52,057 bases of DNA from Moniliella sp. 'wahieum' (taxonomy: Eukaryota): the NCBI GenBank assembly GCA_003971905.1, contig RSEE01000051.1, positions 434,001 through 486,057 of the forward strand, in the 5' to 3' direction. The notes under the pieces were generated by a model. That model was not told the DNA's origin, did not search any database, and saw only the letters and a program-made list of their open reading frames with translations. Positions within the stretch are counted from its first letter, which is position 1; each line of letters starts with the position of its first letter. The position numbers and the translations under genes were made by a program. Positions 5,458-52,057 of the stretch are shown here, piece after piece.

Positions 5458-6858
5458 GGTGTGCACACAGAAAGGCGGGGGTGGTGAGTCTGCGGGGCCA
5501 AGGGCGCTCGCTGCAAGAAAGGGGCGGGGTATAAAAAGCAAGGCGGCCACAACGTCAGAGTACTTACCCCCATACGAAGTGGGTCCAAACTCACACCTGC
5601 CTCGGGACGCCCACACGCGAATCAAATTGAGCCGGCAAATCCTCAACACAGCCCATGTGCCTGGCCTGTGGCTGAGGCGGTCGTTCAATATGCGATCCAC
5701 CTTTTTCTCAGGGGCGGCTTCTCAGCCGCTCACTTCTTCTTTTCTCAGCTGCCAATTTCACAGCTCCGCGGCAGCACCGGCTACCACCCACACCGGCGCT
5801 AAGATTCAAATTATAAGAGTCCATAGCCAGCTATAGTCTTCTGTTTTGGGTGGTATATAGATATCCCGTTGCCGCAATCATTGTTAGATTGGGTACGCAA
5901 AACAATACTGAAGAAGTATACTTACGCAAAGAAGAGACCACATTAGAAAGGAATCAATCTTGAGAGTGAGAGATATGTGAACTCTGTGTTCCTCTCTCCT
6001 TCCTCCTCACCGAGAGCTCTTCCGGTGCGCTGATGCAGCGGCGGCGCGGCGAGCGGCGGCGCCGTCCCGCATGATTTTATCATATGTACCCTTCGTCTCT
6101 CGCCCAAACACCTAGGTATTATAGGCTGATGGATACGTCTTGCGGATCGTGTGTGGGGGGAAGCGTGGCCTGACAAGGGAGCTGGTGTGGTGCATTTTGG
6201 ACCATCTATAAATTGCAATGTTGAACGTTCAGTTGAACGTTGATCGAAAGGAGACGGTTCTCTCCCTTAGAGTTTGCTTTTTGTGGATTCCCGCTATATA
6301 CGTGTGAGATCAAATCATTAATCATCGACAGTACTGCATAGTGGACAGACTGGACTGTGGTTGTCATTTGTCAGTACTCAGTCTGAGCGTGGGATATGCG
6401 CGACCGCACGTGCGATTCGGACGGGATTGGGTTAGTAGACTGAGAACAGCTCAAGTCAGCCGACTGGAGGTGCCGACGGTGCAGTGAGACGCCCTGTGGC
6501 CATAAAGCGCGAAGTATGTACAGTCTTTGGCTGTGTTTAAATGTTCAGCTTGTTTCTGGAGTCATTTACCCCGGTCTCGTTTCTCATCGTAGTATAGTCA
6601 CGTCGTCATGTGGTTGCTGCGCTGGATCCACCTGGCCGTAGTCATGAATCAGACGACGGGCACATTGATACCAAAAGCCTCTATACAGGGGAAGCTGATC
6701 ACGAGGACGGGGCTAAACGACGAATCTAGGAAGCAGTTTTGAGCCTGCAGAGGAAACTGTCACGGGTGGGCACGACGCCCCCGTGCCCTGTGGAGGGGTT
6801 TCAGGGGTACATCAGTTCCTTAATAAAGAAGTCAAAGGGGAAGACTACTGACATATGG

Positions 6859-7362
6859 TTATTTTGTGCTTTTGGGCAGGAGTGTGCAGTGGTGCATCCG
6901 AATGGAGCTATAGGTACAAGAAATATAGCCTTTCGGAGTATACAAGGCGGCTGCAAGTGTGGCAAGGCTGCGTAGCACCGGCTTGGGCGCAGTACTATAG
7001 CGTGTCTGAAGCTTCTGAAGCCTCCATATATCGGGCCCAAGGTCAGGGAGTGGCAGAGTGGAGAGGACAAACGCTGCCAGAGCTGGATCTGAACTGAGAC
7101 TGGGGGCGGCGTGGCTGGAAGCGGGATCACATGGATCACACGCGGCTGAACTGAGCTGGGCTTCGACGTAATAGCACCTGGGAGAGGCATACGCGAACTG
7201 GGTCGTGTGAGGCACAGAGAGCTGATGAAGAGGGAAGCTGGAGGACAAGGACGGTGCAACTAAAAGAGGAGGAGTTGCCTGTACTTGGTTGATCAAATTG
7301 GCGAGGAGAATAATATATGAGGAGAAGCCAATGGATCGTTGGGGAAAACCAACACGAACCAT
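6859..7362 (-). CDS. hypothetical protein, possible signal peptide
   Basis: 167-aa ATG ORF with a hydrophobic N-terminal stretch (FSSYIILLANLINQVQA) and several Cys; no recognisable domain. Confidence 0.3.
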   Translation of the reverse strand: MVRVGFPQRSIGFSSYIILLANLINQVQATPPLLVAPSLSSSFPLHQLSVPHTTQFAYASPRCYYVEAQLSSAACDPCDPASSHAAPSLSSDPALAAFVLSTLPLPDLGPDIWRLQKLQTRYSTAPKPVLRSLATLAAALYTPKGYISCTYSSIRMHHCTLLPKSTK

Positions 7363-8079
7363 TATATTGCTAAAACAGGCAGGGACTAATAGGGAAACAA
7401 TACACTAGAGGAAGAACGGGGGACAGGGGGAAACAGGTGAGACAGTTGCCGCAAGGACAACCTAAAAGGTAAAAGGTAAACGGGCAAGGCGCGACTATCG
7501 TCAAAAAAGGATACTGACAATCCGGTGCAAAAGGCCTGTAAAGAGCGAATATTGTCGCGCGGATACATGGGACTGATGGCCGCGCGGTTGAGGCTGAATG
7601 GGAACGGGCTCTGCCAGGCTTTGGGGCAGAGACTCCAGGCTTCGGCTTTAACCAGATCAGATCACATCTCCGAGACCCTCTCACGCCTTACTGGGTAATC
7701 TCCTCATCTTCCACTCCAACAAGGAGAGGGGACAGCATATTTTTTTCGAATCACCTACTAGGGTCAGGGTGAGGAAGGACAAAGAGGGCGCGTAGGCCCA
7801 GCCATCAGGCTCACCACAGCCCTCCTTCGCCCGCGTGACACCATCACGCTCCTCTTTTCACCAAGGGGGTCCTCATGCTTATAAACAAGGTAACGGCTTC
7901 CCTCCCCCCCCACACCTGGGGGGAAGGGATAAAGGAGTGTATTACGCTTTACGGACGGATACCGTCGCGTTGATGGGGGTTAGCGGTTAAGAAAGCACAC
8001 TTTATTGGCACAAAAAAGCCCAGCCAAGCGCGAATAAGAGGCATGCTTCAATTTGCTTCAAGCTAGCTACATATCAGTA

Positions 8080-8511
8080 TCACATGTCACATGCATGTCA
8101 CATGTCTCGTTAGATAATTGGGGCTTGTGCGCTTGTGCGCGATAATCGATAGTCGATAATCGATAAGGGAGGGTTACTACCAACCGGTATAGCCGCTGCA
8201 ACCCTCGAAGAGCTCGTTCGTCCAGACGGAGAGAATAAGTGTGCTACTGTCTGGTCCTGGTGTTGCCGGTGATGTGCTCACATGTCACATTATGCTTCTA
8301 TCGTAGAATTGTGGGTTCTGATGGGTGCTCGCATTGTGGGCCCGGCAGGCCCAGATCTCCGAAGTGGAAAAAAGCTGGGAAACGCGATCGATAAGCGATA
8401 GCTATTGGGTCGATAAATTATCGGCATCAATAACTCATCGAGCCATTAATCATTACAACCGCCCTCAAGGTGGCCTTAGGCCTTAGGCCTGCCCTTAGGC
8501 CTTAGGCCTTA
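8080..8511. repeat. cluster of 7-bp-period palindromic microarrays
   Basis: (TCACATG)n at 8080-8107, (TAATCGA)-type at 8140-8166, (GGCCTTA)n at 8472-8511. Confidence 0.85.
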
Positions 8512-8768
8512 TTCTCGGCCTCAGGAACAGAGACGCCCGGAACATCTGTATCCCTGAGCGGAATTATTTCCGTTTTTCCCGCACCCGCGCTGTGACCGGT
8601 GACCTTCAAGCGTCATATCACTTGCAAAGCTAATATCATTTGCAAGTCTAAGACAGGAACAAAGGACCCAACGTCTTAAGCGGGCTGAAAAGTCCGAACC
8701 CTTCGCGTTCGTGCGCCCCCGAGTTCAGCTTTGCTTCCTTCTCTCCCACCACCACTTGCTCCTTCGCC

Positions 8769-10213: not shown

Positions 10214-11022
10214 GGCGTGATCAGCCGGCCGTAACCTTTTCGTTTTTCCGGGCTACTATATCCAGCACAACTGCAGGGACGTATATATATACCCTTGAGC
10301 TTTGACCTTGAGACTTGGACACCTCCGTGTGAACACAAAGACAGTAAGAGAGGACCTCGGCTCGAACGCATACCGGTACGGAGGGGGACGTTCCTACCCT
10401 TTCGCTGTACTAGACAATAGTCCAAGGTTTGGAGACGATGAAGTCTGCAAGAAGAGCAGGGCGCATTGCTTACCACCCTCTTCGTCCCATTACGGCACCA
10501 GTGCTGGTGTCCTCCCGTGTTGGTGGGCGTATGCGTGGTCGAGAACGATTGGCTGTAATAGGCGCATGTCATCTACTACACATGGAGCATCCATTCGTGT
10601 GGTACAGGTAGATGTTGTGCAGGTCGCAGGCCAGTAGAAACATTTTCATATACTATCTATATCATGCCTATCGGAGAATAGCTCAATTGCCATGAAAGGG
10701 GTCGGGGAATAGGAGCGACAGAAGAGCCACTACATAAAACTACTTCAGCAAAGGACCCACGGTGGGACAAAAAATGAGATGAATGCAGAAGCGGACAAAG
10801 AGCGCGATCAACACGTATCAAAGTCTGAAGAGCGAGGCGAGGGTCATAACGCACCATGTGCGCACAACGGAATGGTGCCCATGGACCCTCGATCGTAATG
10901 TCGGTTGGGGAAGAACCGAATGAGGTGTTGGGGGGTTATACATGTCAATAATTGGAGTGAGAGAGGAGAAACAACAATGGGAAAAAGCGGGGAGGGGGTT
11001 CAAGCTGTTCAAGGTTCAAGGT

Positions 11023-11166
11023 TCATACGCGCTCCGCGTAGCGCAGGCTCGCATTGCACATGGGGCACCAACTTTGGCTTCCGCTCGCCACGATCCCGCA
11101 CTTTGGGTTGGGGCAGCGGACAGGCTCACTGCCGTAGTTGACCAGAGATTGATGAGGGCAAGTCAT
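11023..11166 (-). CDS. 47-aa putative zinc-ribbon microprotein (below ORF-track cutoff)
   Basis: MTCPHQSLVNYGSEPVRCPNPKCGIVASGSQSWCPMCNASLRYAERV*, carrying CPxxxC-x10-CPxC. Pyrimidine-rich leader and an upstream TATATAAA on the same strand. Confidence 0.55.
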   Translation of the reverse strand: MTCPHQSLVNYGSEPVRCPNPKCGIVASGSQSWCPMCNASLRYAERV

Positions 11167-11448: not shown

Positions 11449-13299
11449 TCTTGTGTTTTGTAGAGAGCGGGGATGGCGTTGGCAATGATTCATGGATTCG
11501 GCATAGCAGCTGCGTGAGTGCCGGAGGCGAGATGGGTAGTCGATACTTTGGTCACTACAAGATGGTTTCCTGTATGGGGCATGGGGCGGGTATAATTATG
11601 CGAGAGAGGGTCGAGACATACGTCAACTGTGTGATCCACAGCGCACACACACCCCGATGCGTGCTGAGCGTGCTGAGGCTACCTGGTCAGAGAGTGGCCG
11701 ATGATCCAGTCCATCGCGCTCAGCCCCAACATGAAGTGGACAGGAGGGCATTCCGCTTGTCTGCCACGAGTAGGTCTTGCGTTGGCGGGAGTCCTTGGCC
11801 GGGTAGCTGGCCAGTACAAAAAGCTGTGGGTATCCCGACAGCGCGGCCAGTGGAACAGCATGACGCGCGAGATGCGGGGTCGGCAGGGGGGCAGTGCGCC
11901 CCCTGGGCTTCGGTGGCGCCCCTCCAGGCGGGGGGCGTCTTGCGTTATATACGCAGCGCCGTGGCGCAGCATCTCTGAGACCTGGGCCCAGCCCCCGGTC
12001 TCAGCCTTCCGGATTTCGCCGGGCAGGAAACACCACCACATCGTACACTGGGGATGGATCCGCACAAAGTGTGGGGGTGGCTACAGCCTACTACAGCGGG
12101 GGGACTGTTGATCATCATCCATCATGCATCATGCGTCATTAATCCGTCATTAATCATTCCAGGTCGGTAGTCGCATGGGCTTTTGTGTATCACAACAGAA
12201 CCAGTGGGGCAGGTGGGACGAGACGTGCGCATTCCACTGGCATCCTCTTGTATTGAGAGCATCCCACAAATGCGAACGAACGCATCCCGAATTGTTGGTC
12301 GCAAAAGCCACATCATCCATCATGCATCAGAGTGCGAGCTCGAGTTACACTGGGGAGCATTAGTTACTCCGCGCCACTCCTGACTACCAGAGCGACTCTT
12401 GACTCGTATGCCTCGATACTCCGTCTGGCGCATACTCGCACTATACTCAGTACTCATCGCTTAACAGGCTAAAACATCGTTTCGCTGGCTCACATGTCAC
12501 AGTCCTCCTCGTTCTCCTATCCCCCCCCTTACTTCATCCACACGCTGTGCTTAGCGCTTATCACCAGCTTTTGACTGACGCTGGACGATCTCTTTCGTAC
12601 GTGACCTTATCTCGTAAAATACGGGCGTATGAGGTTACCACGTAGGCCTCCGTATTAGCCGTATCAACCAGTGTTCAACGTTCAGGGGAGCAGCGGTTCA
12701 CAGCGGCTCAACGCTTTTAGCCCTCTCGTTCTTCTGGCTGTCGATCATCAACGTCACCAACGTTCAACGTTCAACCACCATGCACCACATCATACGCATT
12801 CAGAATCATGCAGGGACGCCCGACCCCCACGACGTCGGATGTTGCCCACTGGTATCTTCCCTGGCTTCGCTCTGACATTTTCAGCCCGCGTTGGTCAAGC
12901 ATCAGTCGTACCACCTTTCTAAGACCGTTCATTAATCATGCGACTTGAACGGGAACCGACGGTAAACCCGGAAACCGTAACCAGCAAGGCAGCACCAGCA
13001 AGCAGTATTGCAAGTGTTTACACTTTCAAGATGACAAGAACGCTGTTGTTGTTGCTGTTGCATCTGTCCATCCTGGAGACCGAAGAGGGCATAATCGGTA
13101 GCTATGGCAGGTGTGCCCCAACCCAGAATCTGCTCCTACGCTTCAAGCTTCAAAGGAGAAGGTAGGAAGAGCAATGAGAGGGGGGTGAGATGCTAGCACA
13201 TGGAATTGTAGACACATGCGACAAGAATGTGTAGGAATCGAGGTGTAACCACAAGGGAACCAGTGAATTGCACGTTCCAGATCGAGCCATTGGGGCGGG

Positions 13300-16271: not shown

Positions 16272-16694
16272 GGTGGAAAGGGAGAGGGGGCGGCTGGCGC
16301 CAGAGGCTCGCGATGGGAACCGGCTGGGCAGGGCGCAGCCAGTGAGAAAGAAGGGGCGCGCCCGCACGAGACAAGATGGGCGGAGCGGATGTGGGTGGTC
16401 GGAGGCGGAGAGAAGTGGTAGTGGGAGGGGCGCATTCGATCGTAACCCCCGAGGCCAACTGGCCCCGGCGGAGAGCTGCGGAGGGTGAGGGACGGGTGAG
16501 GATGGAAGTGCGACGGCTGATACATGAAGCAAGCTGAAGCTAAGCGTATGGTGCAAGGCGGATGGAGCATGATGCTGTGCGTCGGCAGCGAGCTGGTGCG
16601 ACGCTCGGGTGTGGGATGTGGTGGGCCAGTCGGACATTGGGCGCCGGGCGCGGGGCACTGGCGCCGTGCAAGGCGCAATATACAAGTACCCCGA

Positions 16695-17330
16695 TGTGAC
16701 ATGTGATATGTGAACGTTGAACGCGAATGCTGGGCCCCAGCAGCTCAGCCTAGCGCCTGAGCGCCTCAGCCCAAACAACTCGGAACTTGCTGCGGCGCAC
16801 ATCCGCCACCGCAGCACTGAAGCAGACTCAAGTTGCTCAAGTACTGAAGCACTGAGATCTGCGATCTAAAGCTGAAGCTTGGTGCTTTTGAAATCTGAAC
16901 CTCCAGCTGCCACGCATACACGCGGTCTCCAAGGCTATCTCCTCCAGCACCTCTCGGGCGGTGCACCTTGGCGCTATCTTGATGCACCTGAGCCTGACGC
17001 AGACAACATGCACCACCCCCCCACCCTTGGAGCTTGGAGGGCGCTCGGTACTCGGTACTCAGTACCTCAGTGTGCTCAGTCGCAGAGCCGCTCAGCGGCT
17101 CAGCGGCTCAGCTGAGCCACAGCGCGGGAGGTTGAGCAACCTTGGCGCTCCACGTTCGGGCTTGGCACCCGCCGGGGTGCGCGCCCCGCCCGCAGGTGGG
17201 GACACTCAGCCGGTGTTGCTCAGCGCTCCAGCAGCCCGCCCCTGCGACCCCCCTGTATGCAGTACGGCGCACGAGGCCTGGTTTTGCCACCCCTAACAAT
17301 TCAGAATTCAAATTCAGAATTCAGAATTCT
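16695..17330. repeat. dense mixed cluster of TNA/CTNAG-centred short tandem arrays
   Basis: TGTGACATGTGA, TGAACGTTGAACG, CTCGGTACTCGGTACTCAGTAC, (GCTCAGCG)n, (GAATTCA)n. Confidence 0.75.
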
Positions 17331-18088: not shown

Positions 18089-20195
18089 ATGTCGCTTCAG
18101 GTCAACTTGACCTCTCCCCAGATCCGCACCGCCTATGAGGCCGTGCGCAATGGCTCGGAGGACTACTCATCCTTTCGTACGAGCGCGGTTTCCAACGACC
18201 TCCGTGTCCAAGCCGAAGGCAGTGGCTCCCTCGCCGACGTTGCCGACGAGTTCAACGATGGCAAGATCATGTACGCCTATGTGCGTGTCACGGATCCCAA
18301 CACCCAGCTCCCCAAGTTCGTGTTGATCAACTGGTGTGGCGAAGGCGTGCCGACGACCAAGAAGGGGCTCTTCCCCTCCCATTCCCAGGCCGTCGCCGTT
18401 TTCTCACCCCGGCCCACGTGACCATCCAGGCTCGTGACGACGATGATGTCGACCCCAAAGCCATCATGAAGAAGGTGACCGACTCGTCGGGCGCCAAGTA
18501 TTCCGTGCTGGTGACGCGGCCCATGCCCCCCGACGCCTATTGCCGCCGTTGGGACGGCCTACAAGCCCATTGGTACGCCCGATATCAAGGGACCAGGCCC
18601 AAGCCAAGCCCGAGCCAATTACGCCTACTGGTACCGCGTACCAGAGCAGGAAAAACGAATTGGCCGAGATTCGTGCGCGCGCCGCGTCCGGACGCCTGGA
18701 TGAGTCGGCATTGCCCGCCCCCGCCGCGCCTAGCAAGCCGACCCCTGCTCCGGCCATCGGTTCGGTGCCCCCGCCCCTCGTGGATTTGGGGCGTCAAGAC
18801 AGCGCCTGCGGAGGACGATGATGATGACTTTGCAGCGCCAAGCCTTTGCCATTCGGGCGGCCAACGCGACCGCGACCGCAGCCACCGCAGCACCCGGTGC
18901 GTTCCGAGGTCCTGCTCCGGTCGTGCGCGGTCCGGCGTTTGGTGCACCCAACCGAGTGTGACACGTTCCGTGCCGCCTCCTGCTGCTGTTCCGGCTCTAC
19001 TCCTGCTCCGGCGCCGGCTGCGCCCAAGCCTAAGGTTGAGGAACCCGAGGAGGCCGACCGGATTCAGCAGTGGGTACCACCTACGAACCGTCAAGCTCAA
19101 GCCGGGCAAGTTGGCCATGAACCGTTTCCCCTTCAACCAGCCTGCTAACCTGAGCCGGCTCCTATCCCGCGTGCCACAACACTGGCAAGCTGACCTGGTC
19201 CCAGCGCCAGGAACAGGCGCGCAAAGCTCGGGAAGCTGAGGAGGCCCAATCCGCCGCTTCGCTCGAGTCACACCCAAGCCTACTCCGTCGTTTGGGGTGT
19301 GGCTACGGGTGCTGCGGTCGGCGCTGGCGCAGCTGCTGGGTTTGGCGCAGCACGGGCCATGTTCAACCACTCGCAAGAAGAGGAGGCAGCTCCGGCCCCG
19401 CCGCCGCCTCCGCCGCCCCCCTGCTTTTGCTGCTGAGCCTGAGCCCGAACCGAAGTCGCCGCCGTACCTCGTCGCTGGTGCCACGAATCTGGGTGGACAA
19501 GGCCCGTGGGCGATTGCGGTGATGACTATGCCGCCGAGGAAGAGGGGGAGCTGACTCTGGAGGAAGGGAGAAGGTGACCAACTTGGACATGACGGATGAA
19601 GGGTGGTGGTCGGGTACGGCGCAGATGGAACGACAGGTCTGTTCCCGGCATCGTATGTGTGGAAGGTGTGCAAGAGCACAGAAGAAGGAGGCCGTCCGCC
19701 GTCCGGCCGCCTCCGCCGCCTGCGCCGGTCCAAGTGGAGCCGGAGGAAGAGGCAGCGCCGCCTCCGCCGCTCCGCCCCGCCTCCGCCTCCTATGCCTCGG
19801 CCGAGGTGGAAGAAGAGGAGCGCTGCACCTCCCCCCTCCTCCTCCGCCGCCCCTCCTGCGCCCGTGCAATGGAGGAAGAGGAAGCCGCCCCGCCTCCTCC
19901 GCCTCCGCCTCCGCCGCCGCCCCCTGCCCCGGCAGCAGAGCCGGAAGAAGATTTGGCTCCGCCTCCACCGCCGCCGCCGCCTCCCCCTCCTGCTGCTGCC
20001 GCTGCATCGGCCGACCAGGGCCAGACAGCGGTAGCGCTGTACGACTACGAGGCGGGCGACGAGACAGAGCTGTCGTTTGCCGAGGGCGACGAGCTGATCC
20101 AGATTGAGTACCCGTCGGACGAGTGGTGGCAAGGCCTCAACCCTCGGACGGGAGGCGAGGGTACTTCCCTGCCAACTATGTCGAGCGCTAAGCGC
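18089..20195 (+). CDS. ABP1: actin-binding protein Abp1/drebrin-like (ADF-H + Pro-rich + two SH3)
   Basis: ADF-H domain: EFNDGKIMYAYVRVTDPNTQLPKFVLINWCGEGVP...HVTIQARDDDDVDP..IMKKVTDSSGAKY. SH3-1: DEGWWSG..GLFPASYV. SH3-2: TAVALYDYEAGDETELSFAEGDELIQIEYPSDEWWQG..FPANYV. Confidence 0.92.
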
Positions 20196-20924
20196 TAAGC
20201 GCTAACCTGAGCCATCTGAGCCTCAGGCGGCAGCCAGGTGAGCCATGCCTGCTGCACATGCAACCTGCACCTTGCCAAAGCTACTAGTAGCCAAAGAGAT
20301 TGAGTTTGTCTCCCCCAGACGGTTGTGCGATGTGGAGCATCAGGCAGGCAGAAGACCATCCGACTGGATGGAAATCGGGAATTGCGCGTGGCTGCTGTAG
20401 GTTATAGGTGGGCCAAAAAGGGATAGATGGGATGGGCGATGGGGGTGACAAGATCCCATGGTACACGCTGGTGCATGGCATTCCAGCGCAGCGCACCGAT
20501 GCACCGCGCGAGCAAGCCGCAACAGTGGCGCAGTGCTGGACAGTGCTATCGGCCGGAGCTGGCGCAGGGGCCTAGCCTGTGAACGTGGCACGTGGCAGCG
20601 GGATCACATCGATCACACTTGGCCCTACTGTGGCGGCCAGGCGGGAATGCAACCCTAGTGCAGGTCGTCGACATTGCACGGGCGAGACGCTACCATGCTT
20701 CATCAGCCAGCGCGCAGCGTATCAGTTGGGCATCGAATTGAACGTTGAACTTGAACGGACTAAACCTTGAACGTTTGAACCTGACTACTGATGTACTGAT
20801 GTACTGGCGAGGCTAGGCAGCCATGAAATGCATGACGTGGGTACGTTGGGCACGCTCTTGTCCGCCGCCCACACCACCGCCACCGCCACCGCCACCGCCA
20901 CTCCCCCCTCGGAGCGAGTCCGCC

Positions 20925-23187: not shown

Positions 23188-23709
23188 CTTTTTATGTTTC
23201 CCTGTTCCCTGTTCCCTGTGCGCTGCGCACTGTGCACTGTGCCCTCTCCCACTTCATCATCTCCCTTTCTTGCACAACATGTTATGAACCACACTAACGG
23301 TTCCCGGCGTATTGTCTATTTTTCCTCTTCCCGCTCACGCGACCGCGGCGGCGCGATAGCGTCCCAATGTCGCTTTCAATAGTGTATCGAATGTAGTATC
23401 GGGGAGAACCTCTCACCAAGCGGTATTGCAGTGGCGTTGGGCGGAGTGGGCCTCCGCCCTCTTTCTGGACAGGGACAGTAGACGGCCAAGAGCAGTGATG
23501 CATGCCCCTGCTTGAAGCGTGGAGAACCTCTCTGTGCAGGGGATGCATATGCGGGGCCATTTGTAGGCACAACGTTTTTTCGTCGCGAGCAGGACACGAC
23601 ATGATGCATGTCCGGCCCAGCAAGACCGAGAGCGCTGTGTTTTTGGCGCGTGAGCACGGGCTGGTGGACCAGCGGGTGTGGGGCCTGGGGTAGCTAAAAT
23701 AAAAAAAAG

Positions 23710-23805
23710 TGACTGCCCCCAGAATCGAACTGAGAATAACAGAGCTCGGTGAGCTTTATGATTGCGCAACCACAATCTGTCGTGATACCTTTTCACCAGG
23801 CAATC
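23710..23805 (-). tRNA. tRNA-His(GTG) with 25-nt intron (23745-23769)
   Basis: Acceptor GATTGCC/GGCAGTC, D-stem GTGA/TCAC, anticodon stem ACAGA/TCTGT around TT-GTG-G, T-arm CTCAG-TTCGATT-CTGGG, long T-run terminator. Confidence 0.88.
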
Positions 23806-24415: not shown

Positions 24416-24639
24416 TGTTGAGCCACCGGGTGGCTCGTGCTTTGGCCAATGTCCCTTCAGTTTTTCCTCAGGCCTAGGAGTTCCGTTGTTTTTCCTCTCT
24501 CCTTTTTCCTTGTTCCGCAGCTTAGCTCCTGGTGGCGACTCGCTGCTTGATGTTCCTCAGTAGGCGTTGCTGGTTGGCTCAGACTACCACCACCACTAGT
24601 GCCATTGCATCACCCTCGACTGGACTCCAGGTCTCATCA
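24416..24639 (+). repeat. 5' LTR (224 bp)
   Basis: TGTTGAG...CTCATCA; differs from the 3' LTR by two 2-nt indels and one substitution (by eye). Confidence 0.96.
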
Positions 24640-24756
24640 GAGTTATATATACAACTCTTCGCTCATCCAGTGAGCAACGGTGATCAACCCACAATTCCCT
24701 CTTCCATCCCCTCACCCTCTCCGTATCCATCCCTTTCCATCGGCGTTTTCTCAACA

Positions 24757-30398: not shown

Positions 30399-31391
30399 CT
30401 TAGTTCCAACACGCTCCCTACCGCCACAATGGGAGCGGGTAGAGCACCAATGTGGTTAGATACCCACCTCTCTCGCAGCAACCTCGCCACTTCCTTCCGC
30501 ACTTCGTTAAAGTGATTTTTTGTGGATGCCTATAAATACGTCCTCTTCACCCACAACCCCTATCGGTCCCCATAACGGCCCTATATGTACCGAAAGGAGA
30601 ACCAAGAAATGCAACAAGAGATTGATGGAAGCAATGTGTGTTGGTTGTGGCACGGCAGTGTGTGTTCGACTATTACATCAGGCTCTCTTCTATGCCTGTG
30701 CCACCACGTATTGCCCTTGTTTACCCACAACCAAATCCGGATTTTGGCTTCAAGCTGCCCACCCTCTTCTCTCGTTCCTCTGGTTGCCAGAGCAATGGGG
30801 ACGAACGGCAATTAAAATGTTATCAAGGTGTAATATCCGAGAGCTTTGTAGTACGGTCTCTGGAAGGGAAAAGCCATGTGCGAACGCTGGTCCATTGAAA
30901 GCATGTGAGCAACTAGTATAGCAGCGCAGGCAAGGTGTGGGGTATATGAGTGGTGAAGCAGTGATGTAGGTGTGATGACATCACTAAGGGAGTGACGTAA
31001 CGCATCTCATCCCAAGCCCCAACAATCAGTACTGAGACTCAGTACGCAGGCCCCCTGGCGGGGAGGAGTTACTATTGCGGCAAGGCAGTGGGAAAGTACG
31101 ATGGTGATTTAGATGTGACATGTGACATGCGACACTAGAGAAACCAAGCACAGGGCCAGTGTAAGCGCATGCGCGTAGTCAGCCAGCATAGTTCGTTCTC
31201 ATCACGTTTTTTTGCCAAATCACCCCGATCGAAACAAAGGGGCGGGCGCGAGGGTTTGCCAACGCACAGCTGACCGACGCGGCCAGCAGACGCCATTCCC
31301 TCAGCTGTTGCTCTGCGCAACGCCCAACCATCCAACGCTTCGGCGTGTCCAGCTCTAGCACGTCGCCGCTGGCCCGCCCCACGCGCCCTCC

Positions 31392-32635
31392 ATGTCTACT
31401 GAACAAGCGGATGCAGCGCATTCCGCCCACCATGTCGATCCTCCCTCTCATACTTCCACCCCGCCTCAGGGGGACGACGAGACGATGAGCAACTCGGTTC
31501 TATCCGCTCTAGACACCAGCCGGATGTCAAAGACCGACAAGCCCAAGGGCAAAAAGCACAAGACCCCGATTGACGATGCGGTGCGACAACGTATCTGTCA
31601 GCATGCAATGGCCAACCCAGGGATGAAGCAGAGGGATATTGCTGCACTCTTTTGTTTGGAACGGAGTACAGTGAGTAAAATCCTAAAAAACAAGGGCAAG
31701 TATTTGGCGATGCGAATCGAGGAACCTTTCCTTGATCGAGATCGGACGATTCGCCGCCCCATTCTCGAGGGTAAGCTGCTGGAGTTTGTGTATTGGATGG
31801 CATCGGAAGGCGCGCCGCCGCCGGACAATGACCTACTCCGCGCCAAGGCAACTGAGATTGACATGAGCCAGCGGGCGAGCCAACCACCAGGGGGGGACGC
31901 AAGTACCTCGGGCAACGATGTACTCACTGGCCCTCCTGACTATCCCTTTGTTCCTTCGGACACATGGCTTTCCTCATTCCGAGCGCGGCACCGTTTGATC
32001 AACCCCACTCAGGCGTTGGCGCCAGATGAGAGCACAAGCTCAAATGGAAAGCGAACTACGAGCACGCATCCCCTCATGCCTGCTGCCAAGCGCCGGTCCT
32101 CCATCCGGGACAACTCGGTACCCATGAGGCCAAAATCCAGCATAGCGAATGTGCCCAACCCGCAGCAGTCGCACTCTACTCCACCTCGGCAGGGGCCCAT
32201 CTCGTTAAGCGAGGCCGACTCCGCGTTGGCTGTACTGCTTCAATTTGTACGCGAACAGCCCGAGGACGTTTGTTCGCCTCAACACCACTTTCTCATGGGG
32301 CATCTACAAGCCACCATTTCGCGCCTCGCTGCTGCTCAGAACGGGAGCGGACAGTCTCCTCCTCCCCCCAACCAGGCGCAAGCCTCCCCACCTCATTATG
32401 CTCCCCCGAGTACCATTCCTTGGGCCATTGGACATGGCTCCGGAATCTCACCTCATCACCAGAGATCGCCCTCTTCTATGCAAGAAAATGGGAGCTCAAA
32501 ACGCACCGGGGACGATGTATCTCCTCATTTGGTCTCCGACCAGCACCGGCAATGGCGTCCAACTCGTTTGCTGCTTCAAACGAGTCTACGTCAAGGGATG
32601 TACCGGCTCCAACACTGCCCCCCCATTCATCCTAA
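31392..32635 (+). CDS. CENP-B/Tc5-type tandem HTH DNA-binding protein, copy A (no DDE domain); 3' end approximate
   Basis: IDDAVRQRICQHAMANPGMKQRDIAALFCLERSTVSKILKNK (psq-type HTH); RPILEGKLLEFV...NDLLRAKA...FVPSDTWLSSFRARH (HTH_Tnp_Tc5-like); C-terminal helix ISLSEADSALAVLLQFVREQ. Confidence 0.85.
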
Positions 32636-33185
32636 ATATGTTAGTTCTACTCCTGCCTGCTTCATAGGATGTTTTTATAGGGATGCCAAGAGTCAGGATT
32701 TGGATGGCATGCCATCAGGATGGCCGGGCAGCAATGTTAGAGAAGTGGTGGGCAGGAGGAACAGACCGGTGGCGGGTTATCGGTTACCCCGCTACCCGGT
32801 TATGGGGGGGTGCCAAAGACCCCACAAAGAAAGGCATTAACCAGATTGAAATTTGAAACGGAGACGTGCACGCCGTCGCGTGATGAGCTTGGGCTTCGGA
32901 CGCCATCAATTTGACACCACCTCACTTGTCTTCACCCCGCCCGCTTCACTTCTTCTTCCCCTCCCTTTTCAGGTCAATTCAACTCGCAACCAACTTCGGC
33001 AACTGGGATATATATGAGTGGCAGAGTCCGTGCCGGATCAATCGCTTGTGTGTTGCCCTCACTATCTTTTCAAGTTTCAGGCCCCACATGCACACACAGT
33101 TATATTGTGGAGAAACGCGTTGCCTTCAGCTGAGAGACAATATATACTTTTCTCAGTACTAAGTGCGCCCCTCCGTTCTTGTTTC

Positions 33186-33368
33186 CTTGAAGCTTGAAGC
33201 TTGAAGCTGACGCTGAAGCTTGAAGCTTGGCTTGACGGGCCTGACGGGTCACATACACATACCCACCGGCTGTGCGTATGACTCTGTTCTAGATCTTCCT
33301 TAAGCTTGAAGCTTGAAGCTTGAAGCTTGAAGCTTGAAGCTTGAAGCTTGAAGAGCTTGAAGCTTCAC
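33186..33368. repeat. (AAGCTTG)n tandem arrays
   Basis: Seven perfect units at 33302-33350 plus further units at 33186-33229 and 33351-33366. Confidence 0.95.
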
Positions 33369-34646
33369 CGGCTTCACCAGCTTGACCGGTTGACGATCAC
33401 TAACGTGTAACGCAGGCAATGAGGTCATGCACATGGGGGGTGGATAGTTCAGAAAGCCTCCAACAAAATGCTGTCACTGACGCTGCCGACATGGCGGACA
33501 CGTGTCTTTAGCTTGAACGTACCGGTACCGGGTACCCCCTTGAGGTACCTTCCTGGGGAAGGATCCTGTAACAAGGACGCCAGCGTCGTCACTGAGTACT
33601 GAATGCTTTCGAAGACCAACACGACGGGCCTGTCCATGCTATCGGGCCTTTAATTTAACGTTTAACGTTTAACGCATAACGTGGTGGGATGTGGGAGGCT
33701 CTCTGTGAAGCATGTGAAGGGCGGAGTAATAGAAGCAATCTTACTGGCATCCAGTCAAATTGCATCGGTGCGGCAGTGTGGGGCTGACACAGTCAGTGAT
33801 GTGACATGGCGATGATTGGATTACATTGATTCTCTAGAGACAAGAAGCGCGACACGGACACTAGGTCACTGCCCTGTCACATGTCACATGTCATCACGCC
33901 TGCGCCTTGGTTTTCCTGGGTTTGCTTTTTCCTTCTGCAGCGTCTCTGGACGACTGACAACGTACCGACATCGCTTCCCCTCGATAGTCGGTAATCGGTA
34001 CCATGTAACACTCCGTGCTCGTGATCAGCTCGCTATCTTTCCCCCAGTCGGGGCCATCTGAGTACTCAGACTGAGTGCGGCCCGTTGGTCACGGCGCAAG
34101 TTCAGCAGCAGCTCAAGGAACCAGTCCATAAGCCCACTGTAGCCATCGCTAGAGAGCAAGGGTGCGCAGGAGGAGGCCTAAGCGCTGGGGAGAAGGGTGG
34201 CGGGCGGCGGGCCGAGAAGGACGGCGGTAGCAAGCGTGGCAAGCGAGTTCGAGACGACGATCCGCCGTCGGAGCCAATGGAGCAGCCCGGCCAAGGGCGA
34301 AAAACGGGAACCAGGATGCAAGTGGGCCAACACCCGCGCTGGGCTGCCGGCGAATGCAAGTGATGCTGGTGGCTGATGCTGGTGACACGCATGCTGTGCG
34401 CTGGTGGCGGCCGCGGTAGACAGTGGCGCTGTGCCGCGGTGATCAAGCCGTGACACAGCTTCAGCGTGCAGCGTGGGGGCAGTGTAGCGCCATGCGCGTA
34501 GTTGGCCACCATCATTCGTTCCCATCACGTTCTTTCAAATCACTCCAATCGAAATAGAAGCAGCAGGCCCGCAGACGCGACCAGCCAGCCAGCCATCCAT
34601 CTGCCTGTCGCTCTGTCCAACCATCCAACGCGCCGACGCGCCCTCC

Positions 34647-36403
34647 ATGTCTGCCGACCAAGTGGAGGCAACGCACTCCGCTCCCCCTCCCCCAGCGCCC
34701 GCGCCCCCATCTACGGTCGTGCCGGAGCCGACGTCCTCGTCTGCATCGGCGTCCGATTCCGCACCCGCGTCTGTGCACGGCAGCTCTGACATTCCTACAT
34801 TAGCCGCTGTCCCGACGTCCACCCCAGAGGTGGATCCTTCCATTTTGCGACCCGTATCAGCCCCAGAGCCAGGTCTAAAAGTAACGCCAAAACCAGATTC
34901 GGTCCCTGTGCCTGAAGCGGTGCCAGTACCAGAGCCAACATCTGTCGTAGGAGCAGTGCTGTTAGCACTGAGCCTCCCTCGCTTCGTGGCGTCGTTCCAA
35001 ATGCCCATGCCATCCACCCTATGTATGCCACCTCACCTGGCCATGAAGTATGTGTCGCTCGCGCTCCTTTGCCCCAACGCTAACCGCGTCACAGCCGGGC
35101 TACGCGCCACTTCCGGGTTTTGGCTTAGATCTAAGTGCGTCGCCCCCACAGCCCATTCCCATCTACACACCCCACACACGTTTCCACCCTCCACAGGGGT
35201 ACGACGAGACGATGAGCAACTCGATTATATCGGGCCCAGACACAAGTATGATGTCAAAGACTGGTAAGCCCAAAAGCAAAAAACACAAGACGCGGATTGA
35301 CGACGCAGACCGACAACGAATCTGCCAGCATGCGGTGGCCAACCCTGGAATGAAGCAAGGGGATATTGCTGCGCTCTTTTGTTTGGAACGGAGCACAGTG
35401 AGCAAAATTCTTAAACACAAGGACCGGTACTTGACGATGCAGGTTGACGAAACCTTCCTTGATCGGAACCGGACAATCCGCCGCCCCGCTCTCGAGAGTA
35501 AGCTGTTGGAATACGTGCGTTCGATGGCGTCGGAAGGCGTCCCTACCGGACAATGACCAACTTCGCGCCAAAGCGACTGAGATTGACATGAGCCAGCGGG
35601 CAAGCCAACCGCCCGAGGGAGACGCAAGTACCTCGGGTAGCCATGTACTCGGGCTCTCCTGACCCTCCCTTTGTTCCTTCGGACAAATGGCTTTCCTCAT
35701 TTCGAGCGCGGCACCGCTTGCACAATCCCGCTCCATCGTCAGACTCGAGTGAGAGCAAAAAGTCCACTGGGAAGCGAGCTGCGAGCGCGCATGCACACAT
35801 GCCTCCTGCCAAGCGTCAGTCTGGCAGTTGGAACTATCCCAGTCCCCTGTACCCGGGGCCCACATGCCCCTATGGTTCACCCACCGCAGTGGCACTCCAC
35901 CCCACCTCCCCAGGGGCCCGTCTCGCTCCACGAGGCCGACACGGCCTTGTCTACCTTACTTCAGTTCTTACGGGAACAGCCAGAGGGGATTTGTTCGCCC
36001 CAGCACCACTTTATGTTGGGGCACCTGCAAGCCACCATTTCGCGCCTCGCTGTGGCCCGGAACGGACCCGCTCCTCGGCAGGCACAGGCGCAGGGGCCCA
36101 TGACCTCACACTATACTTCCGCGGGCACCCCCCAGTGGGCGGTGGACATGGGTTTGTTTCCTCCTCCCCCAAGTCTTGCCTGGTATCACGCCAGAGAACA
36201 GGACGTCAAAACGCGGTGGGCTCGATTCCTCCGCCTCGCCGGCGTCAGCGCATACAGCAGCGCTTGCAGCAGCGCCCACATCCGCGGCTGCTTCGGTTGA
36301 GACCACGCGGGATGTGCCTCCTCCGCCGGAGCCAGCTTCGCATCCTCGTTCGCCTAAAGATGCTAGATTTGCTCCTGTCTGTTGGGGGGGTGCTTCTCCA
36401 TGA
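34647..36403 (+). CDS. CENP-B/Tc5-type tandem HTH protein, copy B (paralog of copy A)
   Basis: MSADQVEATHSA vs MSTEQADAAHSA; IDDADRQRICQHAVANPGMKQGDIAALFCLERSTVSKILK; FVPSDKWLSSFRARH; VSLHEADTALSTLLQFLREQ. Intron 35048-35094. Confidence 0.85.
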
Positions 36404-36846
36404 ATGCTATGGGCTAGAAGGCGGTTCGGCGGCGTGTGGGGTGGCCCTCGCTTGCGTTTGCGTCGCATAGGAGTGGAGCGGTGGACGGGCAGACCCCGGC
36501 CAGCAAACGACTGGGCCGAAAGTGCAATTTGAAAGTGGAAATGGCGACGCGTGCTCCCAGGTGGGGCTGTTGCATGTGGCGTGTGGCATGCGACATGTGG
36601 CATGCGACACGTGGCCTGCGACTAGGGACCGCCACGCGGGGGAGTGTATTAGCTAAGCACGGGGCCCGTGCACCCGGAGTACTAGCACGCGCAGCACATA
36701 ATGGCGCCCTGTCAACGTTTGGCTCGCCCTAGAGCCTCGACGAGACGATAAGCTGGCAAGCGTCGCCAGTGCAGAATACACGAGCGAGTATGGTGCGATC
36801 GGTGTGCCTCAAATACTTCCGATAGTAAAAAGAGCGGTAAAAAGAT

Positions 36847-36932
36847 CTCTCCGACCGGGAATCGAACCCGGGTCTCGTCCGAACGCCCTAGTAAATGACA
36901 GGGACGTGTCATAGCCACTAAACTATCGGAGA
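36847..36932 (-). tRNA. tRNA-Asp(GTC) with 14-nt intron (36882-36895)
   Basis: TCTCCGA acceptor pairs with TCGGAGA, anticodon stem CGTCC/GGACG around CT-GTC-A, T-arm CCGGG-TTCGATT-CCCGG. Confidence 0.94.
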
Positions 36933-37476
36933 TCTCTGCTACCGTTAAAGTGCAAATGCTGTCGTCTTAACTCCACGTCGTAGTTGTCACACCTGCACCC
37001 AACTGTGTGATGAGAAACGTCGTAGTTCTGTCACCCCATGGATGATGCCTTTGGCGTATAAAAGGGGCCAATCAGCTCTCTCCAACAGAGACGATGGGAT
37101 GGTTGCACGTCTCCACTTTCGCCTTCGCCGCGGGTTATGTGGTAGGCCAGCAAGGACGATGAGCAGAGACTAACATCTGGTTAAAGGCTACTTCCTTGTG
37201 CTTCCGTGGTATATGCTGCAGAAGATATATGAAAGAGAGATACTATGAAGATGTACGCTGCGATTCTGGGTTCGTATGTAGAGTGCATCACATGCTCCGG
37301 TGTGCATTCTCATGGTAATCAAAGATCCGTAGGCCAACGCGCCAGAGAGCGTCGGGCTTTAGTGTCGTGCAATCAATCACACAGCAGAGATGGGCAAAAA
37401 ATATGGATGAGACTTGAGTTCAAGCTTGAGTATTACTGAGAGGACTGAGACTTTGCAGGCGGTACACACTTTCCAA

Positions 37477-39106: not shown

Positions 39107-39846
39107 GGCAGAGTGGATGGGAAGGGAAGGTGGTGGGGGCGGGAGAGGAGAAGCGCGGAGGAGCTTTGTAATGATTAGCCGGAGGCGGAGGCGGCCGATA
39201 GGCCAGAGACAGACCTGATGCCTGTCGGGGCTGACGCTGACGCCTCCCATTCAGAGCCTGCTTCCGGTAGCAGAAAAAGCCGGCGGAGCCGGGCGGCAGC
39301 GAAACAAGCGACAGCCGGTGGTTCCTGTGAGCCGCAAGCTGCTGAGACACGATGCCCGCTCCCTTCACGCGTCCCGGAGGGATCTTTGCAAGTTGTAATG
39401 ACGTACACAGCCAATGCGGACACCAATCGGCATTTCAAATTTCATGCATGACCGTTGACGACGTTGACGCGGGACGGGACGCAGGACGCTTGACACTTTG
39501 AAAGTCAATCGAAACAGGGTTGTTTAAACGACACCAGGTAGCTACACTGGCTCTGTGCTTGCCTGCTGCGGCTTCGCCTTCCTAGGGTTGGGCACATCGC
39601 CAGTCTCACCTCCAGCTCGGCACTGCCCGCGACTGGCGGCTGCGCTAGGGTTGGTGCCCCCCTCTGCCTCGGCATACCGATGCTGGCCGTGCGGCTGGCG
39701 TGCCGTTGCGGACCACCACACACAAAGGTCAGTACCGCTCACCCCGAGACGCCGGTACCACCACCATGGCCAGGAAGCACATGAACTTGCTCCCTTGCTG
39801 GTGCTCCGCTTCGAGCATACAGCTGACCCCGTGCAGGTCTTGTGAC

Positions 39847-41274: not shown

Positions 41275-41307
<33 letters not shown>

Positions 41308-44474: not shown

Positions 44475-45403
44475 TGTGAATGCGGTGGTGTTTTGGAGAG
44501 TCGACGGGACTGGAACTAGGCGAGTAGAGTCTCGCAACCGGTTGGAGAGAGACGGAGTGAAGAAATGTCAGGGAAGACCACAGGGGAGACCGTGATGATG
44601 TCTTCTTGCAAACGCCACACCCAATAGGAAAAGGCGAATAGCCCACAGGAATGAGAAGGTCAATGCGAAGCGCAAGCGCAATGACAAGGGCAGGGGCAAG
44701 AGCAAGAGAAGAAGCAAGGAGCGCGAGTGTGGAGAGGTAATAGAGGCCGAGAGGAGCACTGTGTTGGGGTGTTGGTATATGCGTTGGGGTAGCATGTGAG
44801 AGGGGTGAGTACCGAGTACTGAGCATGGAGTGTGTGACATGACATTGCAACACGGCAGCAGTGCGAGTAAGGCGGGGTACAGCCTGGCACAACCGGGTAC
44901 AGCAGGTTGAGGCGAATGGGCTTAGCAGAAAAGTGGCCTTGTGCCCGGCCCGCCTGTAGTATGCCCACGCGTATGGCTCAGGCGCTGAGGACCCGCGCAT
45001 TATACGCGACGCACGTCAGCGCACGCCACCGCCCGGCTGGGCTGGGCGCCGAATGTGCCTGGAGCCAACGCTTATTAACGCGATTAACGCCCCACTCACA
45101 TCAAGTGCATGACGCTTCGCTAGAAACTTGGCATGCACGACAGGAGTCTCCGTGCGCGTGACTAGTCATCTACTAGTGACCGGCCAGCCTATTCCCTACA
45201 CGTGTCCTCGGCGCTTTCGTTTGCCACGGCCTTACATGTGCTTCTTTGCCCCGCGCGGGGCAACACCCCCCCGCATGGGGTCTGCCAGGCACATCTGTCG
45301 ACCGTCGGTGATCTGTCTCATTTTCTGCTTGCGTACCTCGACAGGTGGGGTTAACGTTTAACTCTGTAGACGCGATGCCACCCGTCGTGGCTGCCCAAAA
45401 AAG

Positions 45404-47936: not shown

Positions 47937-48420
47937 CCCCCGCACTCGGTGGTGCCCCTCTCTTTTTTTGCCCGACAGCGTCTTGTCATTTGTGCTGTCG
48001 GATGTGAGATCTGACTCTTCAATTTTGGGCGTTGCCCACTTCCGTATTGGAAGTTGTATTCTCCACCCTAGACCGGGCTGCTGGTTGGCCTTGTTTCCTG
48101 TGTCCTTTTATGTTACTGTGCCTGAATAATTAGCAGGCGAAGAAACACTATATGATCTACAGGCCGCATACATGTACCACACCCGAAGGATAAACCAAAG
48201 ACAGATTGCACGTTGATACGTTGAGAGAACACAAGGCCGGTAGCTCACCGCATTCGGACCACAAACCCGGCATCTGTCAAGTCGGCGGACATGCGCTCGG
48301 GACCTATACTACTACCTAGTTGGCAGGTGATGTGGCTGAGGCATATCCGATTGCGCTTGGGGCTGCCAACAATGCCAAGCAGACAACACCTCCATCCCCC
48401 AGCGCCCTCCCCCCCCCTTC

Positions 48421-51400: not shown

Positions 51401-51693
51401 GGGTGGACAAAGGTGCAGTCGTAAGGGCACCACGCGTGGAACGCTGCATGTTGCTCGATCCATGTCAGCGCGGCACACGCAAGCGACAGTGACTTGCCCG
51501 TGCCAGTGGGCGACTCGAAGATGCCAGCGTGGCCGTGCTCAATGCAGTGGAACAGGGCGCGCATGAGCGTGAGCTGGATGGTGTACGCCTGGGAATGGGG
51601 GAAACCAAAGGCACGCGAGGCGGCCTCTGCGTCCGACTCGGACGCGGAGGGCGTGGGAAGAACGAGCGCTCCGGCGGATGAAGCACTGGTCAT
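48421..51693 (-). CDS. CHL1: FeS-cluster DNA helicase Chl1/DDX11
   Basis: AYTIQLTLM...[42 protein letters not shown]...[68 protein letters not shown]. Two short introns near 49100-49180 and 49680-49740. Confidence 0.95.
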
Positions 51694-52057
51694 GGCGGCG
51701 GATTGGAGTGGTGGTGGTGGTGGTGCCCATCGATCGAACGAGGCCAGTGGCGAGCGAGGCTACTGCGCCGGAAGGAGCCCCCGCGTCAAGCCATATTAAC
51801 ACCCCAACGAAGTGGCCAAAATTCTCCAACGCGCCGCGTCGATGCATGGAGGACGCGTGTGAACATTGAACATTGAATATTGTCCCCGACACGTGACCAG
51901 TACACAGGCCACCCGGAACTCGCGATAAGAAGGCGGCGAAGAATCGGCACATCGATGGGATAATTGAGGCCTCGAGGAATCAATAGGCGACATGATGGCG
52001 TTTTGCGTCCTGGGTGAGTTGGGTACCAGCCTAAAGCATTGTTCCTGGGCCGGCAAA

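Follow-up and report, generated by a model that had tools for sequence, protein, structure and literature searches.

Palindromic heptamer repeats built on TNA, with flank-templated cores, in the intergenic DNA of Moniliella sp. 'wahieum'

A 52,057-base stretch of eukaryotic DNA (57% G+C) from Moniliella sp. 'wahieum' (contig RSEE01000051.1, positions 434,001 to 486,057), hereafter called the window, was found to carry a family of short intergenic repeats in which a 4-bp palindrome alternates with the trinucleotide TNA, giving a period of seven bases. The heptamer pattern is real and lies far beyond chance. Its native form is not an array but a 12-mer, TNAxy + y'x' + TNAxy or the mirror image thereof, such that the 4-bp palindromic core is made up of the two bases after (or before) a TNA plus their reverse complement. 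The rule, its specificity for TNA, the templating of the cores by the flanks and the limit of the duplicated stretch to 7 bp are all evident in the window. We propose, at a probability of roughly 45%, that the arrays together with many isolated 12-mers are scars of one recurrent break-and-rejoin reaction of the hairpin type, with a cut-and-paste transposon as the source; what we infer from these products is the passage through hairpins, the mode of ligation and the involvement of a transposon.

Statistics and anatomy of the heptamer repeats

Seven was the commonest period returned by Tandem Repeats Finder in the window (26 of 88 rows). As a null model, 200 sequences were simulated at each of the Markov orders 1, 3 and 5. 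Exact period-7 tandem duplications of at least two copies numbered 29, against a simulated mean of 2.7-3.7 (maximum 9), and exact duplications at periods 8 and 9 numbered five and three, respectively. In 17 of the 29, rotation of the unit yields a 6-bp palindrome and one further base, for which 0.26-0.43 was expected (maximum 2-3), and this bias had no counterpart at period 6 (2 of 46), period 8 (0 of 5) or period 9 (0 of 3). The 12 non-palindromic period-7 duplications were themselves about fourfold in excess, about 3 being expected. The 10-mer TNA + 4-bp palindrome + TNA had 58 matches at 40 loci, where 5.3-6.2 matches were expected (maximum 12-16), while TNA + non-palindromic 4-mer + TNA was found 96 times versus 80-103 expected, i.e., without excess. 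An earlier note on this DNA had put forward the rule of a 4-bp palindrome plus TNA and had proposed non-palindromic cores as its control; run on the window, this control bears the rule out.

When direct 3-base repeats around a 4-bp palindrome were sorted by their outer bases, TNA was the sole enriched class (32 loci versus 1.7; maximum 5 in 200 simulations). The other nine outer-base classes were near expectation, with CNG, GNC and ANT at expectation and the largest, CNC/GNG, at 20 versus 9.7. The middle base of TNA was C or G at 34 of 41 loci; since the window holds 1,550 TSA sites and 553 TWA sites, this preference is mild at most. A general excess of palindromes was considered and rejected, as counts outside the arrays were near expectation; long odd palindromes with arms of at least six bases did exceed expectation (43 versus 13.5), but this excess consists of the arrays.

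The loci avoid coding sequence. A coding map based on codon usage gave a signal too weak for exon definition, and spans of Pfam-supported open reading frames (ORFs) were used as the coding proxy instead. Only 2 of 41 loci fell within these spans, which make up 31% of the window (P = 3.6e-5), and one of the two is an array that begins at a stop codon. It is to be noted that an insertion of seven bases shifts the reading frame, so that selection alone can account for the scarcity in coding spans; a preference of the responsible agent for open intergenic DNA is also possible. The loci are clustered in a few intergenic regions, with 11 of them, for example, within 12.1-13.2 kb, and certain units recur, namely CATGTCA (18 loci versus 7.5 occurrences expected) and AGTACT (20 loci versus 7.2 occurrences expected).

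The anatomy of single loci revealed the elementary unit. In the 58 matches, the middle base N of the paired TNAs was the same in 46, complementary in 8 and otherwise in 4; the structure is thus a direct repeat around a palindrome, and not a perfect palindrome. Loci were taken as isolated when their 7-bp periodicity spanned less than 14 bases; in 19 of these 22, the period continues for two or three further bases to one side only. By (left, right) extension, the 19 comprise six of (2,0), four of (0,2), three each of (1,2) and (3,0), two of (0,3) and one of (2,1); the isolated forms are 12-13 nt long in 20 of the 22. Every 14-mer was also compared with the 64 ideal two-copy forms. Where there were two mismatches, both fell on the two outer bases of one side in 14 of 40 cases, compared with about 0.9 under random placement, and where there was a single mismatch (n = 21), 13 were at the four outer positions and 8 at the ten inner ones.

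The origin of the core was examined by a spacer control in the form TNAxy + spacer + TNAxy. At 29 loci the spacer proved to be the reverse complement of its neighboring bases; it was their mirror at none, a direct copy at 2 and the complement only at 6, the last being the same as the reverse complement when x = y. The second option of the earlier note, scars of hairpin or template-switch repair, fits the anatomy in its hairpin form. Because each core is made from the local flank dinucleotide and its reverse complement, 14 of the 16 possible palindromic cores occur, and because each is templated by its own flank, different cores can be joined in one composite array, as at 16694-16722. The loci face both ways, 24 of 41 lying on the plus strand and 17 on the minus strand.

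Other combinations of repeat length and inverted spacer were also enriched. In (5,2) matches, TNA occupied repeat positions 1-3 in 59 of 91 and positions 3-5 in 3 only. In the rarer variants, two complete copies of pqTNAxy enclose 2, 5 or 7 inverted bases; in the period-9 class, which consists of a 7-bp repeat, two inverted bases and the 7-bp repeat again, TNA was central in the 7-mer in 9 of 11 matches. The repeat reaches at most two bases to each side of TNA, the exceptions being two loci with 8-bp repeats. An explicit model was then tested, in which each TNA of the window was taken as the centre of D7 = pqTNAxy and the bases following it were compared with P(mL) + D7[mR:]. Here P(mL) stands for the last mL bases of D7 in reverse complement, and D7[mR:] for D7 minus its first mR bases. 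The best populated cell was (2,2), which is identical to (3,3), with 29 loci against a simulated mean of 0.2. It was followed by (1,1) with 14 (0.2), (0,0) with 11 (0.0), (2,0) with 8 (0.0), (1,2) with 8 (0.7), (2,3) with 8 (1.25), (2,1) with 5 (0.1) and (1,0) with 3 (0.08). Cell (5,0) contained two loci, 6220-6238 and 37413-37431, both of the form 7+5+7, and cell (7,1) contained one, 34057-34076, each against a simulated mean of 0.0.

A proposed break-and-rejoin origin and its alternatives

In the proposed reaction, the target would be a 7-bp staggered stretch, pqTNAxy, with T-N-A at its centre, and both copies would be kept, as after a 7-bp target-site duplication. At each flanking end the two strands would be joined covalently in a hairpin, which would then be nicked some 2 nt away from its tip, as in the formation of P nucleotides. 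A nick m bases from the tip would move m bases between the strands, and if one strand were ligated directly and the other copied from it, the product would be D7 + P(m) + D7 minus its first m bases. The two junction-adjacent bases on one side would in this way be replaced by the reverse complement of the other side's two, to give either pqTNAxy + y'x'TNAxy or the mirror product pqTNAq'p' + pqTNAxy, ligation of the top strand leading to one of these forms and ligation of the bottom strand to the other. With equal offsets, the length of the product would always be 14 (a net gain of 7 bp), hence the fixed period of 7. The pairing of T with A means that offsets of 2 and 3 would both end in a 6-bp palindrome plus N, and offsets of 4 and 5 in the form with complementary N. 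The rarer forms with periods of 8 and 9 would result from unequal offsets, and the inverted inserts of 5 and 7 bases from long ones. A doubled core, expected if both overhangs were kept, is seen once, inside the array at 8080. The source would be a 7-bp-duplicating insertion, followed by excision through flank hairpins by a cut-and-paste transposon of hAT-like behavior. Each scar contains two or more TNA targets, the internal one a perfect 7-bp palindrome, so that re-use of the site would add units with the same N; slippage may take over the growth once several copies exist.

Several other routes were worked through on paper, specifically a 3-bp duplication with P nucleotides, fill-in of 5' or 3' overhangs, template switching at a palindrome, and flap ligation; none of them produces the 12-mer.

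Among known systems, hAT elements are the closest. They make an 8-bp duplication, at targets of the form nTnnnnAn or nnnTAnnn. As with hAT elements such as Ac/Ds and Hermes, both target-site copies are kept here and inverted or complementary bases are found at the junction; the generally accepted account of Ac/Ds footprints, where bases beside the excision point are exchanged for their complements, is that of hairpin ends opened off-centre (PMC2921059). Unlike in hAT, the duplication here is of 7 bp and TNA-centred, the largest stretch being 7 bp with 8-bp forms at only two loci, the exchange typically involves two bases rather than one, and the window contains no hAT transposase or element. 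In V(D)J joining, where this is likewise the accepted explanation, the hairpins made by RAG are opened off-tip and the palindromic P-nucleotide additions, commonly of 2 nt, take the terminal bases of the end as their template. The V(D)J coding joints belong to a vertebrate immune-gene process without target duplication, and are a chemical analogue only. P-type excision leaves long single-stranded element ends and not flank hairpins, and the consensus of Galileo is palindromic, differing from the TNA-centred target found here. Galileo, of the P superfamily, does share the 7-bp target-site duplication (PMC3573991), while the flank-hairpin type of product is unlike Galileo and P elements; the latter are described as rare in fungi in a survey of fungal cut-and-paste elements (PMC5751038). 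For Muta1, excision is reported to be precise in most cases, with no mention of hairpins (PMC5225508).

A number of points weigh against a transposon source. The direction of change rests on a single internal comparison, that of paralogous upstream regions with three units before the first gene and one before the second, in which the alignment is short and weak. No match to a hAT, MULE or other DDE transposase was found in the 153 ORFs scanned with Pfam, the Copia integrase apart. The 52-kb window has no inverted-end element with a TNA-centred duplication of 7 bp or 3 bp; the search for terminal-inverted-repeat elements with TNA target-site duplications, which the earlier note had called for, yielded none in the window with exact 10-nt inverted ends at most 6 kb apart, and searches for inverted-end elements with 2-9-bp or TNA-centred 7-bp duplications returned array self-matches only. 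About 40 scars per 52 kb, clustered as they are, demand a very active or long-lived element, and no superfamily that excises through hairpins and duplicates 7 bp is known to us, the hAT duplication being 8 bp. The product spectrum is narrow: neither TNATNA (36 versus 31.6) nor the 1-base palindromes of the form TNA + 2-bp palindrome + TNA (5 versus 5.8) were enriched, a result that counts against the proposal because untidy end joining might yield trimmed products; TNA + 6-bp palindrome + TNA was likewise not enriched in the window. The target rule is not absolute either, since TNA is not at the centre in 19 of the 48 loci of the 12-mer type, versus about 6 expected for all types. Finally, the Ustilaginomycotina are described as compact and low in repeats, and Transib as absent from fungi, in the above survey (PMC5751038).

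Some of these points can be read in favor of the same scar chemistry operating without a transposon, in which a host enzyme (a domesticated transposase or a dimeric nuclease) cuts around TNA where intergenic DNA is open, or a repair polymerase turns around at breaks of this kind. In either case a short inverted insert would accompany the duplicated stretch. The predicted anatomy would be identical, no donor element is present in the window, few repeats are reported for the lineage (PMC5751038), and a recurrent host process would fit the high density and the clustering, with 11 loci, for example, between 12.1 and 13.2 kb. Nonetheless, a plain staggered cut leaves single-stranded overhangs and not two full double-stranded copies closed by hairpins, and insertion with subsequent excision is the simplest explanation for 7 bp being kept on both sides. 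No candidate enzyme was identified, and no template-switch route with microhomology could be drawn that leads to the 7+5+7 loci. Overall, we regard a transposon-free origin as rather unlikely.

Ordinary slippage, in which palindromic units are favored by hairpin folding of the looped-out strands, is a weaker candidate. The arrays do resemble micro- and minisatellites in being head-to-tail, they reach 9 copies, and good folding as single-stranded DNA was seen for the long AAGCTTG array (z = -5), the only one to stand out in this respect. Non-palindromic period-7 duplications, moreover, share in the excess (12 versus about 3, as above), and some arrays have probably grown by whole-unit copying. 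The clearest case is the TGAACAT array at 51860-51882, whose unit is one base off TGAACGT; since it is the mutated, non-palindromic unit that is repeated, this array must have grown in that way. However, slippage cannot make the first copy, and it does not predict 12-mers composed of a flank dinucleotide and its reverse complement. It leads one to expect unconstrained units and arbitrary end phases, whereas unit length and sequence are under a strict flank-tied rule, isolated forms of 1.7 copies (12-13 nt in 20 of 22) dominate, and the bias toward palindromic units is confined to period 7. The short arrays fold no better than shuffled sequences (z between -0.15 and -1.3), which speaks against stabilization by hairpins, and the TNA specificity and the 7+5+7 and 7+7+6 loci are left unexplained. 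The view of the earlier note that ordinary slippage does not predict a fixed architecture with a variable core is upheld by the palindromic units (17 of 29 versus 0.3), and we consider slippage an improbable origin of the pattern, although it may well contribute to its growth as stated.

A somewhat less probable alternative still is that the repeats are clusters of promoter-borne sites for dimeric transcription factors, or chromatin signals, maintained by selection. The loci are indeed intergenic, a few units (CATGTCA and AGTACT) recur, each of the two paralogous genes described below is preceded by a palindrome with GTAC at its centre, and the E-box-like TCACATG, the GATAA within the CGATAAT array and the ACGT cores resemble known binding sites. 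Against this, the occurrence of 14 of 16 cores, each fixed by its local flank, is not something that a protein would specify; a dimer site would have complementary N, whereas N is the same in 46 of 58 matches, and single palindromes outside the arrays are not enriched.

The last alternative returns to transposons in a specific form, the first option of the earlier note. Tc4/Tc5 of C. elegans and the PIF/Harbinger elements make 3-bp TNA or TWA duplications at a T-N-A-centred insertion site, and it had been suggested that such a duplication, with two terminal bases from each inverted end of the element between its copies, generates the arrays. TNA is indeed the constant part, and two tandem paralogous genes of the window, 31359-32837 and 34488-36467, encode proteins with weak matches to CENP-B_N and to a Tc5-type helix-turn-helix (HTH; E = 0.002-0.14, under the Pfam cut-offs), their Atlas leads, at a score of 0.84, being 'HTH CENPB-type' clusters. 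Unlike in Tc4/Tc5 and PIF/Harbinger, which leave element-end bases or are excised precisely, the duplicated stretch here is not exactly 3 bases; it measures 5 bp in the 12-mers, and the period-9, 7+5+7 and 7+7+6 loci have a duplication of 7 bp. The cores are not family-constant bases of inverted ends; they follow the flanks, and 14 of 16 occur, so that about 14 element families with different terminal dinucleotides would be required. No such element was found in the window, and the Pfam scan gave no DDE domain match in the products of the HTH paralogues. This option is refuted as stated and we give it next to no weight; its wider idea, transposon excision footprints with re-use of the site, survives as the best source for the scars. 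Precise repair is the outcome reported for mPing excision sites (PMC4561436).

The individual loci and their genomic neighborhood

All of the arrays in the earlier listing exist, at or within a few bases of the positions given there, with corrections as mentioned below. It had not included 12113-12139 (TGCA+TCA), 13140-13153 (AGCT+TCA), about 22 isolated loci with two TNAs, and three members without TNA that consist of a 6-bp palindrome and one base, namely 17298-17329 (AATT+CAG), 20583-20597 (ACGT+GGC) and 23216-23242 (TGCA+CTG).

At the beginning of the window, TGA+GATC+TGA occurs twice; the copy at 245-254, formerly listed as an array, is a lone 10-mer, and that at 301-312 is a mirror-type 12-mer. 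The 6220-6243 locus has a GTTGAAC unit in the order 7-bp copy, five inverted bases, 7-bp copy and 12-mer, and represents the long-P variant of class (5,0); an array is present here (6221-6243) and at 8080-8107 as had been noted, but both contain irregular units. The 12-mers TCA+TTAA+TCA and TCA+GTAC+TCA+GT are found at 6313-6326 and 6371-6382. Two period-9 loci follow, each with two inverted bases between the 7-bp copies: 7005-7020, in which TGA is central (class (2,0)), and 7125-7140, in which TCA is central and the 7-mer of which recurs at 20602, there with the inverted bases from the opposite end. The latter belongs to a motif of about 26 nt common to two unrelated intergenic regions, 7116-7141 and 20593-20618, with the same 7-mer twice and a two-base gap that reads TG in one copy and TC in the other. 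The inverted bases in the gap correspond to one end in the first case and to the other end in the second, which may have come about through two separate resolutions or through just one G/C change.

The TCACATG array with one doubled CATG core (8080-8106), the doubling being predicted if both hairpin overhangs were kept, is followed by a CGATAAT array (TCGA+TAA) of 3.9 copies (8140-8166), the 12-mer TCA+CATG+TCA+CA (8278-8289), a GGCCTTA array (GGCC+TTA) of six copies with one irregular unit (8472-8511), and the 12-mer TGA+CCGG+TGA+CC (8591-8604). At 10998-11025, a non-palindromic unit, GTTCAAG with TCA central, forms a period-9 variant and then plain 7-bp copies. The dense 12-13 kb cluster opens with a CATCATG array (TGCA+TCA) that merges into TCA+TTAA+TCA (12113-12158), a composite whose two cores match its two flanks. 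It continues with the 12-mers TCA+TGCA+TCA (12318-12329), TCA+GTAC+TCA (12445-12456), TCA+CATG+TCA (12490-12501), TTA+GCGC+TTA (12549-12560) and TCA+ACGT+TCA (12673-12684), a CAACGTT array (ACGT+TCA) of 2.6 copies (12758-12775), and a two-copy TCA+AGCT+TCA (13140-13154).

In the composite array at 16694-16722, a constant TGA alternates with the cores CATG, TATG and ACGT, the left core matching the flank TG and the right core the flank AC. The divergent intergenic region 16740-17110 is rich in CTCAG and CTGAG motifs at varied spacings, with a 7+7 palindrome at 17105-17118, and at 17044-17112 it carries period-7 and period-8 relatives built on CTCAG, GGTACTC in three copies and AGCGGCTC in 3.4 copies, of classes (2,1) and (1,0); the array formerly listed at 17045-17065 is present here, but two of its three units carry TCG and not TNA. 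A GAATTCA array (17298-17329) is made of a 6-bp palindrome plus one base, with CAG instead of TNA at its centre. The AGCGCTA array (GCGC+TAA) at 20184-20205 starts from the stop codon of the cofilin/SH3 gene, which is its first TAA, and places TAA in all three frames right behind the coding end of that gene. Farther on are a two-copy CACGTGG unit without TNA, followed by a period-9 variant on GATCACA (20583-20617), a cluster of TTGAAC units at spacings of 7, 6, 16 and 8, ending in the period-8 variant TACTGATG in 2.6 copies (20737-20806), and a GTGCACT array, again a 6-bp palindrome plus one base, with CTG at the centre (23216-23242).

The densest group of scars surrounds the two HTH paralogues, whose DNA is about 80% identical and the second of which (34488-36467) is split over three frames. 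Upstream of the first gene are TCA+GTAC+TGA, with complementary N and within a 17-bp palindrome (31026-31045), and three copies of an ATGTGAC array (31113-31134), of which the paralogous upstream region near 34450 has one copy. The 12-mer TGA+AATT+TGA lies at 32845-32858. What had been listed as AGCT+TGA at 33186-33366 has units of that kind but consists of two arrays. The first, a CTTGAAG array (33186-33248), decays into TGA with varied fillers and has a period-9 variant at 33233; the second, AAGCTTG in 8.9 copies, is followed by period-9 units on CTTCACC (33300-33389). About 70 bp of unique sequence separate the two, and as the unit is self-complementary, the whole (33186-33365) has the look of a small foldback. 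Next come the 12-mer TGA+GTAC+TGA (33591-33602), a TTTAACG array (ACGT+TTA) of 4.1 copies (33653-33682), a period-9 variant on CTTCACA on the minus strand (33704-33719), a TGTCACA array of 2.7 copies (33875-33893), and the class (7,1) locus (34057-34076), which has a 7-bp copy, its full 7-base inverted copy and six bases of the copy again.

The loci in the remainder of the window comprise, besides the TGAACAT array at its far end, the second class (5,0) locus (37413-37431), with five inverted bases between 7-bp copies; the group at 39433-39469, with the 12-mer TCA+AATT+TCA, TCA+TGCA+TGA and a period-9 variant on CGTCAAC; a period-9 variant on ATTAACG, TAA being central (45074-45089); the 12-mer TTA+ACGT+TTA (45351-45362); and the 10-mer TGA+GATC+TGA (48005-48014).

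Genes were identified by a Pfam scan of the 153 ORFs of at least 110 amino acids (14 + 139). Those supported by Pfam were PSF3-like, phosphofructokinase, histidine phosphatase, sulfate permease, cofilin-plus-SH3, a Copia-type retrotransposon, acyl-CoA dehydrogenase/cytochrome b5, ubiquitin-L40, endonuclease III and a CHL1-type helicase. Among named organisms, the helicase finds its best matches, at 36-47% identity, in Tilletiaria, Pseudozyma flocculosa, Sympodiomycopsis, Violaceomyces and Malassezia, and the phosphofructokinase is 50-56% identical to many fungal sequences; judged by these sequences, the lineage is probably a basidiomycete near the Ustilaginomycotina, to which no named entry of the database is close. 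The Copia-type long-terminal-repeat retrotransposon (24416-30398) has rve and RVT_2 matches in a coding region that is broken across several frames. Its terminal repeats are about 97-99% identical, start with TG and end with CA, and it is flanked by a 5-bp duplication, CTTAG, itself a TNA-centred odd palindrome. In the cofilin/SH3 gene, a proline-rich coding repeat at 19363-19990 is built of CCGCCT-type units with a top-level period of 67. A hexamer array, CTCAGG in 5.5 copies (41275-41307), lies within the endonuclease III open frame; it matches the unequal-offset cells (0,1)/(1,2) of the scar model, but may be a mere coding repeat. Two tRNA genes, at 375-481 on the plus strand and 36847-36932 on the minus strand, were the only matches of an Rfam scan of the window, and their lengths would accommodate introns; ARAGORN confirmed only the one at 36847-36932, and made a different, odd call at 23709-23805.

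Novelty and meaning

No description of palindromic heptamer arrays or of TNA-centred 7-bp scars in fungi was found in the full-text literature searched, whose coverage leaves most subscription journals outside. The chemistry is known, while the geometry, the density and the link to the birth of microsatellites appear to be new. On a bolder and doubtful reading, the window would record an undescribed break-and-hairpin system that attacks TNA-centred 7-bp sites in open intergenic DNA, with such frequency that its scars would rank among the chief sources of both heptamer microsatellites and new intergenic sequence in this fungal lineage. Such a system could be a transposon superfamily of a new kind, duplicating 7 bp around TNA, or a nuclease domesticated from such a superfamily. 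Each scar would create new and more symmetric targets, and scars would thereby seed their own growth. If the hairpin-scar reading proposed above is right, a single stereotyped repair product would amount to roughly one insertion per kilobase of the non-coding DNA in the window, a mutational signature legible from a single genome, and past activity of mobile elements would come to light in a lineage thought to be nearly devoid of DNA transposons. It would also mean that transposon or nuclease scars can found microsatellites of fixed architecture, and that promoters gain ready-made palindromes as potential binding sites of the future. The D7 + P + D7 rule can be counted in any genome, and may be used to trace the responsible enzyme.

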